From the sequence record OR844650: a DNA stretch of 64,000 bases; one strand, written 5' to 3'. Numbering within the stretch: the first letter of the stretch is position 1; the number at the start of each line of letters is the position of its first letter. Below are positions 54,045 to 54,782 of this stretch, in pieces. Source of the stretch: Escherichia phage ECO103 4-12-1. The notes below the pieces were generated by a model that made no database searches, was not told the origin of the DNA, and saw only the letters and a program-made list of their open reading frames with translations. Position numbers and translations under genes: made by a program.

Positions 54045-54782
54045 ATGTTACCTTTTGGAAGAATGGTTAAGTACGGGAATAAAATTGAATATAAGCCACA
54101 TGGTGAACAATTAATCACGACAATAGGAACAACACAATTTACAGTTCCTGCTGGCGTTACCGAAATATCAGTATGTGTTATTTCGCCGGGTGGTCAACGT
54201 GGTGCTGGTGGCGGCTTATCGTGGCGTAATAATATTCCGGTTACTAGTGGTGAGTACTTAAGTGTTTCTCTTACACATCCCAACACTACTACACCAGTTG
54301 AAAACGGTTTATATCGTGGAACTGAAAAACTATGTGTTAGCTTCACTGGTGAATATAGGGTTGGTGGACTAGGTGGGAAAGCTGCTAACGCTATTAATGA
54401 TGGTGGTGGTAATGGGGGCAACGCTGGTGTAAGTGGTGGTGCAGTCATTGGTGGTGGTGCTGGTGGCTACACTGGTAAAGGTGGTAACGGAGATGCAATC
54501 ACTGGTGAAAATGGTGCTGGGGGCGGCGGTGGTGGTGGTGCATTCTATAATACCTCGTTCATTGGTACGGGTGGTGGTACTGGTATCATTGTTCAAGGTG
54601 CTAATGGTATTGGCGGTAGATACGATGGTTCATATAATGGTGGTGCTGGTAGTGGTGGTGCTGGTAAGATGTATGGTGGTGGTGGTAGTATATGGGATAA
54701 TTTTTCTTATACGGCTGCTGGTGGTGGTGCTGTGCGAATAATATGGGGACGTGGGAGATATTATCCTAACAATTCAGTCTAA
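54045..54782 (+). CDS. glycine-rich protein carrying the same MLPFGRMVKYGN leader
   Basis: ORF track; long G-rich tracts; C-term 'GGGAVRIIWGRG'; no RCC1 motifs. Confidence 0.7.
   Translation: MLPFGRMVKYGNKIEYKPHGEQLITTIGTTQFTVPAGVTEISVCVISPGGQRGAGGGLSWRNNIPVTSGEYLSVSLTHPNTTTPVENGLYRGTEKLCVSFTGEYRVGGLGGKAANAINDGGGNGGNAGVSGGAVIGGGAGGYTGKGGNGDAITGENGAGGGGGGGAFYNTSFIGTGGGTGIIVQGANGIGGRYDGSYNGGAGSGGAGKMYGGGGSIWDNFSYTAAGGGAVRIIWGRGRYYPNNSV

Follow-up and report, generated by a model that had tools for sequence, protein, structure and literature searches.

The window analyzed here, a stretch of 64,000 nucleotides (nt) representing one strand of Escherichia phage ECO103 4-12-1 (record OR844650), contains a tandem array of 16 plus-strand open reading frames (ORFs) that all open with MLPF (39444–57441). 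Thirteen are intact genes for RCC1-like propellers, one is a frameshifted copy and one a decayed copy; the remaining member encodes a glycine-rich protein. The subject of this study is the glycine-rich gene and the 12-residue N-terminal leader that it has in common with the propeller genes around it. A preliminary description of this DNA had placed the gene exactly (ATG at 54045, stop at 54780–54782, plus strand, 245 amino acids (aa)) and had correctly noted that its product opens with MLPFGRMVKYGN, as the neighboring RCC1 propeller genes do; 14 of these neighbors have such a start. The features of the locus are as follows.

39444–57441, plus strand: tandem array of 16 leader-bearing ORFs, syntenic with phAPEC6 gp001-010 and 121Q gp234-248.
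53980–54008, plus strand: intrinsic-terminator-like hairpin GCCAGTACTTGATACTGGC (53980–53998) and T-run, the first element of the intergenic cassette.
54009–54028, plus strand: promoter-like box GTATTAAATATAGTATAATG with a TATAAT-type −10 and no canonical −35, near-identical in 11 array cassettes.
54032–54038, plus strand: Shine-Dalgarno sequence AAGGAGG, 6 nt 5′ of the ATG.
54045–54080, plus strand: leader, codons 1–12, MLPFGRMVKYGN; mean predicted local distance difference test score (pLDDT) of 49 over residues 1–10, no secondary structure.
54081–54101, plus strand: short linker KIEYKPH (residues 13–19), where DNA homology to the neighboring genes stops.
54102–54344, plus strand: predicted TNF-like β-sandwich domain, residues ~20–100.
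54345–54779, plus strand: glycine-rich domain, residues ~101–245, 38.6% glycine, including the family signature GGGAVRIIWGRG at nt 54720–54755.
54788–54810, plus strand: terminator-like hairpin 3′ of the glycine-rich gene, which opens the next cassette.

Given the placement of the Shine-Dalgarno sequence, translation of the glycine-rich gene begins at the MLPF ATG, and at this true start MLPFGRMVKYGN fits the pattern M-L-P-F-x-x-[LMI]-x-x-Y-[GA]-N. The full consensus of the 12-residue leader is M-L-P-F-x-[R/I/Q/P]-[L/M/I]-x-x-Y-[G/A]-N. Among the 13 RCC1 paralogs, which are mutually just 18–26% identical, six of the ten invariant alignment columns fall within residues 1–12. Two damaged members were seen in the array: the RCC1 copy at 47845–49024, in which an apparent frameshift leaves a 59-aa leader ORF followed by a 358-aa ORF with a GTG start, and the terminal copy at 57283–57706, which has decayed, its leader having degenerated to MLPFRRIITSSKK with loss of YGN.

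Glycine accounts for 28.6% of the whole 245-aa protein, and the long glycine-rich tracts that had been described are present; however, GGGAVRIIWGRG, which had been given as the end of the protein, occupies residues 226–237 and is followed by eight more residues, RYYPNNSV. The reported lack of RCC1 signatures was borne out. Pfam gave no RCC1 match and indeed no family at E ≤ 0.1, while four array neighbors in the same scan returned RCC1, RCC1_2 and WD40_RLD; likewise, the PHROG assignment is phrog_4474 (unknown function) and not phrog_4219, to which the two scanned neighbors belong. The gene has a GC content of 45%, compared with 35.5% for the window, and long ORFs overlap it in other frames on both strands between 54194 and 54741 (for example, 54433–54741 on the plus and 54369–54596 on the minus strand), which are by-products of its GGT-rich codon runs. 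Hypothetical proteins with 93.9–99.6% identity to it occur in 15 jumbo phages of E. coli, UB, SP27, 121Q (gp243) and phAPEC6 (genus Asteriusvirus) among them, and the CMSTMSU counterpart is 84.7% identical; the gene is accordingly one of a Rak2-like jumbo myophage (~350 kb).

An AlphaFold2 model built on a 59-sequence alignment reached an overall pLDDT of 93.6 and predicts a β-sandwich followed by a glycine-rich lattice. Trp234, Gly235 and Pro241 are invariant across the 59 homologs, and the nearest models in BFVD are phage and giant-virus entries named “glycine-rich domain-containing protein”. A PDB sequence search returned nothing at E ≤ 1. PF21722 (Gly_rich_2) is matched by 17 of the 59 aligned homologs (best E 3.8e-13), whereas the window protein itself does not reach the curated threshold of that family, so the kinship is transitive or at the superfamily level. 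Most members of PF21722 and of the ALK/LTK glycine-rich domain, although related to the window protein, are C-terminal parts of longer proteins or have other N-termini.

A typical array gene is preceded, in order, by a hairpin with a T-run, the conserved ATTAAATATAGTATAATG box and the Shine-Dalgarno sequence AAGGAGG. Hairpins of the type GCCAGTAC...GTACTGGC with a T-run lie between most array genes, and terminator-like sites number 27, against 7.5 ± 2.6 in shuffled sequence. A generic sigma-70 scan of the array was not enriched (101 sites, 98.5 expected), and we therefore only infer a promoter function for the conserved box. The ATG inside this box is in frame for only some paralogs. From −60 to +37, the glycine-rich gene equals its upstream neighbor at 52831 but for one base, in codon 5; past codon 13 the identity between the two drops to ~25%, and none of the array neighbors has any similarity to the glycine-rich gene from there on. 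The near-identity of the cassettes reflects local gene conversion or duplication, that is, concerted evolution. The preliminary description had listed the same upstream cassette alongside the leader, and the near-identity to the neighbor is real, but the module does not include the cassette: two genes of the array, 44240 and 46665, bear the leader with neither hairpin nor box, and leader genes of Pectobacterium phage CBB have other upstream sequences. The leader is thus separable from the cassette.

Within the window, the 15 copies compared do not differ in codons 1–4 of the leader, whose linked codons 8–10 set apart two subtypes, namely F-D-Y (TTT GAT TAT, seven genes) and V/I/F-K-Y (GTT AAG TAC, eight genes). 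CBB and uncultured relatives have the subtypes P-R-L-x-E, S-I-x-N-x and x-P/Q-L-L-V, which partly track the class of cargo. The subtypes might address different sites.

The same leader was found far from any array. By tblastn, CBB_144 of phage CBB (of the distant genus Mimasvirus), a 254-aa protein, is an ortholog of the glycine-rich protein with 38% identity and opens with MLPFSPLIVYGNKI; it keeps MLPF...YGNKI while its gene sits between nrdD and nrdG, the anaerobic ribonucleotide reductase genes, outside any array. CBB_144 is annotated as a “structural protein” on the basis of electrospray ionization tandem mass spectrometry of virions, with five peptides and 34% coverage (PMC5259590). Ten more CBB proteins (CBB_247, 536, 537 and 548–554) start with MLPF-x-[R/I]-x-x-x-Y-[G/A]-N, and what follows the leader differs among them: a Kelch propeller in 550, 552 and 554, a Laminin_G_3/ConA-like domain in 548, 551 and, weakly, 247, and no Pfam family in 536, 537, 549 and 553. 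The CBB leader codons vary synonymously (TTA/CTT for Leu2, CCA/CCT/CCG for Pro3, TTT/TTC for Phe4, TAT/TAC for Tyr10, GGA/GGT/GGG for Gly11 and AAT/AAC for Asn12) while the residues are kept, which indicates selection on the peptide.

By published mass spectrometry (MS) of CBB virions, nine of the at least 11 leader proteins were detected (144, 247, 536, 537, 548, 549, 551, 552 and 553). With 55 MS-detected proteins among 554 ORFs, this is a strong enrichment (hypergeometric p = 2.4e-8). The authors of the CBB study singled out six structural proteins absent from phage GAP32 as logical candidates for the tail “whiskers”, and all six bear the leader. Their paralog table links only 536-537 and 549-553, so the common leader went unnoticed there.

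The distribution of the leader was surveyed with two degenerate DNA patterns against IMG/VR, one of which was also run against the JGI metagenomes. Matches at an ORF start behind a Shine-Dalgarno sequence occurred solely in Rak2-like phage DNA, the remainder being internal or in short ORFs, and the motif is thus not a product of chance. The true-start carriers are 121Q, GAP32, CBB, Serratia phage BF, Yersinia phage fHe-Yen9-04, uncultured contigs of 355–371 kb and similar fragments; in all, the leader was found in about a dozen Rak2-like jumbo phages, and the genera or uncultured lineages in which it is conserved number eight or more. In the table by which the CBB authors compared phages, the leader-bearing CBB proteins have no RaK2 homologs. 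In a tblastn search with an RCC1 paralog, the alignments included the very first residue for jumbo phages of Escherichia, Salmonella, Yersinia, Serratia, Erwinia, Xanthomonas, Cronobacter and Klebsiella aerogenes; with the RCC1 proteins of Clostridioides phages, the alignment begins only at residue 19–30. False matches to the leader pattern came mostly from one unrelated, widespread family (L058, L061, L063 and ~60 other metagenome loci). This family has an internal motif, MLPFKGLYWYGNW-PG-L-RHVYPVPD, mostly ~200–250 codons into the ORF.

The carriers span 170–690 aa. When the first 14 residues were removed from 90 unique leader-bearing proteins, the remainders fell into ten BLAST clusters, for which Pfam returned RCC1, Kelch or Laminin_G_3 in some cases and no family in others. 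On both cargo types that were modeled, glycine-rich and RCC1, the leader lacks secondary structure and its pLDDT stays under 50; in the model of the RCC1 paralog 52831 (pLDDT 82.4), the first strand does not begin before residue 22. A role as the “Velcro” strand that closes a propeller was considered and dropped, since the leader is disordered in the RCC1 model and is also found on non-propeller folds. Taken together, the at least ten BLAST-unrelated cargo clusters, the occurrence of CBB_144 outside the array, the synonymous codon variation and the predicted disorder support the proposal that the leader is a transferable unit that does something in its own right, and is no mere remnant of propeller descent.

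A leaderless variant of the glycine-rich gene was observed in an Asteriusvirus-like Logan contig (SRR12907740; L057:1238–1858), where 37 nt are missing exactly between direct GGGAAT repeats, one in the tail of the Shine-Dalgarno sequence and the other in codons 11–12. Its product is ~33 aa shorter beyond what the 37-nt deletion explains, and the variant is probably a case of decay or an assembly artifact. Through the direct repeats, the leader could be lost or gained.

Published virion proteomes of further phages also contain leader proteins. The virion proteome of phAPEC6 includes six of its eight annotated RCC1 proteins with the leader (p = 3.8e-5). The phAPEC6 record (MK817115.1) leaves three leader-bearing RCC1 paralogs unannotated (3–1145, 2434–3543 and 6063–7253), and its glycine-rich gene (7325–8059) is replaced by “gp004” in the wrong frame (7716–8018). 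Owing to these annotation gaps, four products, the three RCC1 proteins and the glycine-rich protein, were undetectable in the published virion MS. In GAP32, the RCC1 protein gp001 (MLPFSRIIQYGN), gp530 and gp531 were MS-positive.

A second leader, M-[L/I/F]-E-[L/M]-[L/M]-x-[L/I/V]-[G/S], was observed at the head of RCC1-like, glycine-rich and weakly LamG-like proteins of Vequintavirinae-type phages. Among 120 homologs of the glycine-rich protein, four have the MLPF-type N-terminus and 37 one of the M-[L/I/F]-E-[L/M]-[L/M] type. The loci are as follows.

W70, L056:4645–8143: second-leader locus.
EspYZU08, L005:2940–4100 and 5953–6687: second-leader loci.
L052:8134–8799 and 10001–10744: second-leader loci.
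PVP-SE1, L055:14790–15632: second-leader gene gp19, the only one in the first 50 kb of this phage.

The RCC1-like carriers begin with MFEMLLGG in EspYZU08 and with MLEMLNLG, MLEMLNLS and MLEMMNLG in W70_237-239, which belong to phrog_4219. The W70 proteins are virion proteins by MS, with 141–233 spectra compared with 467 for the portal (PMC11370258). Second-leader proteins are absent from the text of the phiTE and CB7 papers. Two lineages thus place different tags on shared cargo families, as would be expected if the tag fits a lineage-specific acceptor on the particle.

Based on these results, we lean towards the view that the leader serves to dock or address proteins to the virion, as a peptide specific to the Rak2-like jumbo myophages and carried on exchangeable binding modules; we hold this with modest confidence, and consider the broader statement, that virion incorporation is mediated by the leader by whatever route, to be more likely. 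Of the functions that the preliminary description had offered, virion targeting or assembly is thereby favored by the published proteomics together with inference, and secretion is not. In the proposed mechanism, the leader would form an N-terminal tail that is free and lacks structure; a short linker, often rich in proline, would connect it to a binding domain that folds by itself. The tail would insert into an acceptor site conserved on one of the structural components of the virion, and unrelated folds (RCC1 and Kelch propellers, a ConA/LamG-like lectin, a TNF-like domain with a glycine-rich tip) would thus be tethered at the same kind of site. What the data show directly is the motif and where it occurs, its place at true translation starts, its presence on unrelated cargo folds, the lack of order in the models and the published virion MS of many carriers; that the peptide causes incorporation, that the proteins lie on the outside of the particle and what they dock to are inferences.

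The 245-aa protein itself may be a minimal auxiliary adhesin, with a tip of the Pam3 gp24 type in which the helical baseplate-docking domain has been swapped for a 12-residue tag. Pam3 gp24 (PDB 7YPX) has an N-terminal helical domain that docks to the baseplate, followed by a TNF-like and a glycine-rich, host-recognizing domain (PMC9608196). The window protein resembles it in having a TNF-like sandwich and then a glycine-rich lattice, at a sequence identity of 17%, but where gp24 has a trimerizing α-helical N-terminal domain, the window protein has the leader. Unlike the Pam3-type fiber, the array has no evident adjacent chaperone gene. For the RCC1 cargo, a search of an array paralog against PDB sequences matched only eukaryotic RCC1, UVR8 and HERC, and the docking site is seen in no solved phage structure. 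The tail wing brush protein gp33 of Mycobacteriophage Bxb1 (PDB 9D93) differs from the proteins described here in coming from a siphovirus with Gram-positive-type hosts and in being without the MLPF leader.

An attractive candidate for the docking partner is the hairs or whiskers seen on CBB and phAPEC6, on a link that is correlative only. A 2026 review still lists the hairy appendages without a molecular assignment. Donor-strand polymerization of the leader proteins into hairs was rejected on the argument that unrelated cargo folds could not share one acceptor groove.

N-terminal elements common to virion proteins with unrelated C-terminal domains have precedents in TSP1-4 of ViI-like phages and in gp526 and gp529 of RaK2, where the shared element has been interpreted as the particle-binding part (PMC3622015). 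The RaK2 N-terminal motif is, however, a different tail-spike anchor and not the MLPF leader. Tail-spike anchors are folded, ~50–150 residues long and belong to large trimeric spikes of the baseplate, whereas the leader has 12 residues, is predicted to be disordered and heads small proteins. Where such an anchor is defined as a folded element of tens of residues with demonstrated binding to a baseplate or adaptor, the leader is therefore something else.

Several observations speak against a docking peptide. An anchor of 12 residues would be much shorter than the known tail-spike anchor domains. Virion MS reports co-purification with particles and neither the location of a protein nor its dependence on the leader; the phAPEC6 RCC1 proteins have low peptide counts (1–4), and two CBB leader proteins, 550 and 554, were undetected. 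GAP32 is not reported to be hairy and hairs of W70 are undescribed in the literature found, but both have tagged virion proteins. Inside the window, the identical codons 1–4 and the linked subtypes (FDYGN with TAT, VKYGN with TAC) are explained equally well by duplication or gene conversion.

The main rival is a capsid-targeting sequence of the T4 type, which we regard as improbable. In T4, the targeting sequence of IPIII is a portable, cargo-independent N-terminal tag of ~10 aa that brings proteins into the virion; it is followed by a gp21 site ending in Glu, the tag is cut off, and the head encloses the cargo. By analogy, the leader would direct its proteins to the prohead core and so to the head interior, and would perhaps be cut by a gp21-like protease. 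The short, cargo-agnostic nature of the leader agrees with this, as do the T4-like prohead core protease and scaffold encoded by Rak2-like phages. The inner-body rod of phAPEC6 is in line with it too, together with the proposal of the phAPEC6 authors that the RCC1 proteins are DNA-organizing components. Furthermore, six of the 11 CBB leaders have [L/M/I]-x-E at positions 7–9, resembling the (L/I)-x-E of the T4 gp21 site. Yet an acidic residue at the putative cut is not conserved: position 9 is Lys in eight and Asp in seven window leaders, and Gln, Lys, Ala or Val in the CBB leaders without Glu. The most conserved part, Y-G/A-N, lies past the putative cut. The cargo is also of a different kind, consisting of lectin, propeller and fiber-tip modules that are adhesin-like and have homologs annotated as tail fiber or virion structural proteins, unlike DNA-associated or ejected effectors. 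Finally, the spectral counts, albeit a rough measure, place each W70 RCC1 protein below the 12-copy portal, which is contrary to a high-copy core component. The term “capsid-targeting sequence” is used in PMC5694885; our literature searches returned no earlier description of the MLPF motif or of capsid-targeting sequences in Rak2-like phages.

Ranked behind this, and likewise of low probability, is the idea that the leader makes no contact with the virion but is a tag for an assembly factor or chaperone, or an aid to folding or oligomerization. A conserved, cargo-independent, disordered peptide fits such a role equally well, and glycine-rich fiber tips of the Pam3 and S16 types need dedicated chaperones. 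The known fiber chaperones, however, bind distal C-terminal domains and not the N-terminus, and a single chaperone would probably not act on structures as different as propellers, lectin folds and glycine lattices. In addition, AlphaFold folds both cargo types confidently with no contribution from the leader, and a tag that differs between lineages on shared cargo would be left unexplained.

It is more doubtful still that the peptide has no function, its 36 nt merely hitch-hiking with the 5′ expression cassette or serving the mRNA or translation initiation, with the glycine-rich gene having been recombined into the array. The invariance of codons 1–4 and the codon-linked subtypes within the window are what this would produce, as are a cassette and leader essentially those of the neighbor with a sharp break in homology at codon 13; the direct GGGAAT repeats that flank the leader, and the one metagenomic variant deleted exactly between them, point the same way. 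Outside the array the argument fails: CBB_144 keeps the leader in another genomic context behind another upstream sequence, and the CBB paralogs keep the residues while their codons change synonymously. Nor would hitch-hiking account for genes 44240 and 46665, which have the leader but no cassette, for the retention of the leader in ten cargo clusters and in eight or more genera or uncultured lineages of phages, or for the enrichment of its carriers in virion proteomes.

A signal for secretion from the infected cell, or for export to its envelope, would suit an N-terminal element common to otherwise unrelated proteins but is very unlikely given the lack of a hydrophobic core. Sec, Tat and lipoprotein signals have an h-region of 7–15 residues and a cleavage motif, whereas the 9-residue Kyte-Doolittle mean of the leader stays at or below 0.5 throughout and drops below zero from residue 3 on. 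No hydrophobic stretch appears in the hydropathy profile of residues 1–25, there is no lipobox or twin-arginine motif, and the leader proteins are found in purified virions.

Further genes lie 3′ of the array. Directly adjoining it on the minus strand (58392–61172) are seven small predicted membrane proteins of 104–141 aa, several of them clearly paralogous, in a run that is apparently syntenic with CBB_539-547, which adjoins the CBB leader-gene cluster. Beyond these, on the plus strand at 62056–63081, a 341-aa ORF has three tandem modules of ~60 aa (...Y-I-G-x-x-K-T-x-L-x-L-T-C-x-x-G-H-x-W/C-x-T-T...C-P/R-x-C), and its C-terminal part resembles small phage endonuclease domains.

Anchors and targeting tags at the N-terminus of virion proteins are established as concepts, but a 12-residue tag on at least ten cargo families throughout a clade of jumbo phages, together with a parallel tag in another subfamily, appears to be undescribed. 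As a wider and decidedly tentative generalization, N-terminal address codes that are short and specific to a lineage (MLPF...YGN in Rak2-like jumbo phages, the M-L-E-M-L type in Vequintavirinae) may allow large myophages to load horizontally exchanged lectin-like modules, such as RCC1, Kelch, ConA/LamG and glycine-rich tips, on a common multivalent acceptor, possibly the hairs. If so, the tagged paralogs of an array would compete for the same sites, and the coat would be combinatorial and perhaps heterogeneous between particles. The system would then be a viral counterpart of dockerin and cohesin in cellulosomes, in which a small docking element likewise joins many unrelated cargo proteins to a common scaffold. 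This analogy is functional, with no homology implied, as dockerins are folded, calcium-binding domains of ~70 residues, usually C-terminal and part of an extracellular complex of bacteria, unlike the 12-residue N-terminal leader. Address codes of this kind would also provide a ready 12-residue display tag for jumbo phages.

For the 121Q-like phages, the arrays annotated as “regulator of chromosome condensation” or “DNA condensation” can be re-read as families of tagged, virion-associated binding proteins. In CBB, one sequence feature now unites all six of the unexplained structural proteins specific to that phage, and the composition of hairs and whiskers, as well as the loading of accessory proteins onto giant virions, becomes directly testable. 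Should the tag prove sufficient, it would be a minimal handle for the display of foreign proteins on jumbo phages. The parallel tag of the Vequintavirinae suggests, moreover, that there may be a general rule by which phages domesticate imported adhesin modules.

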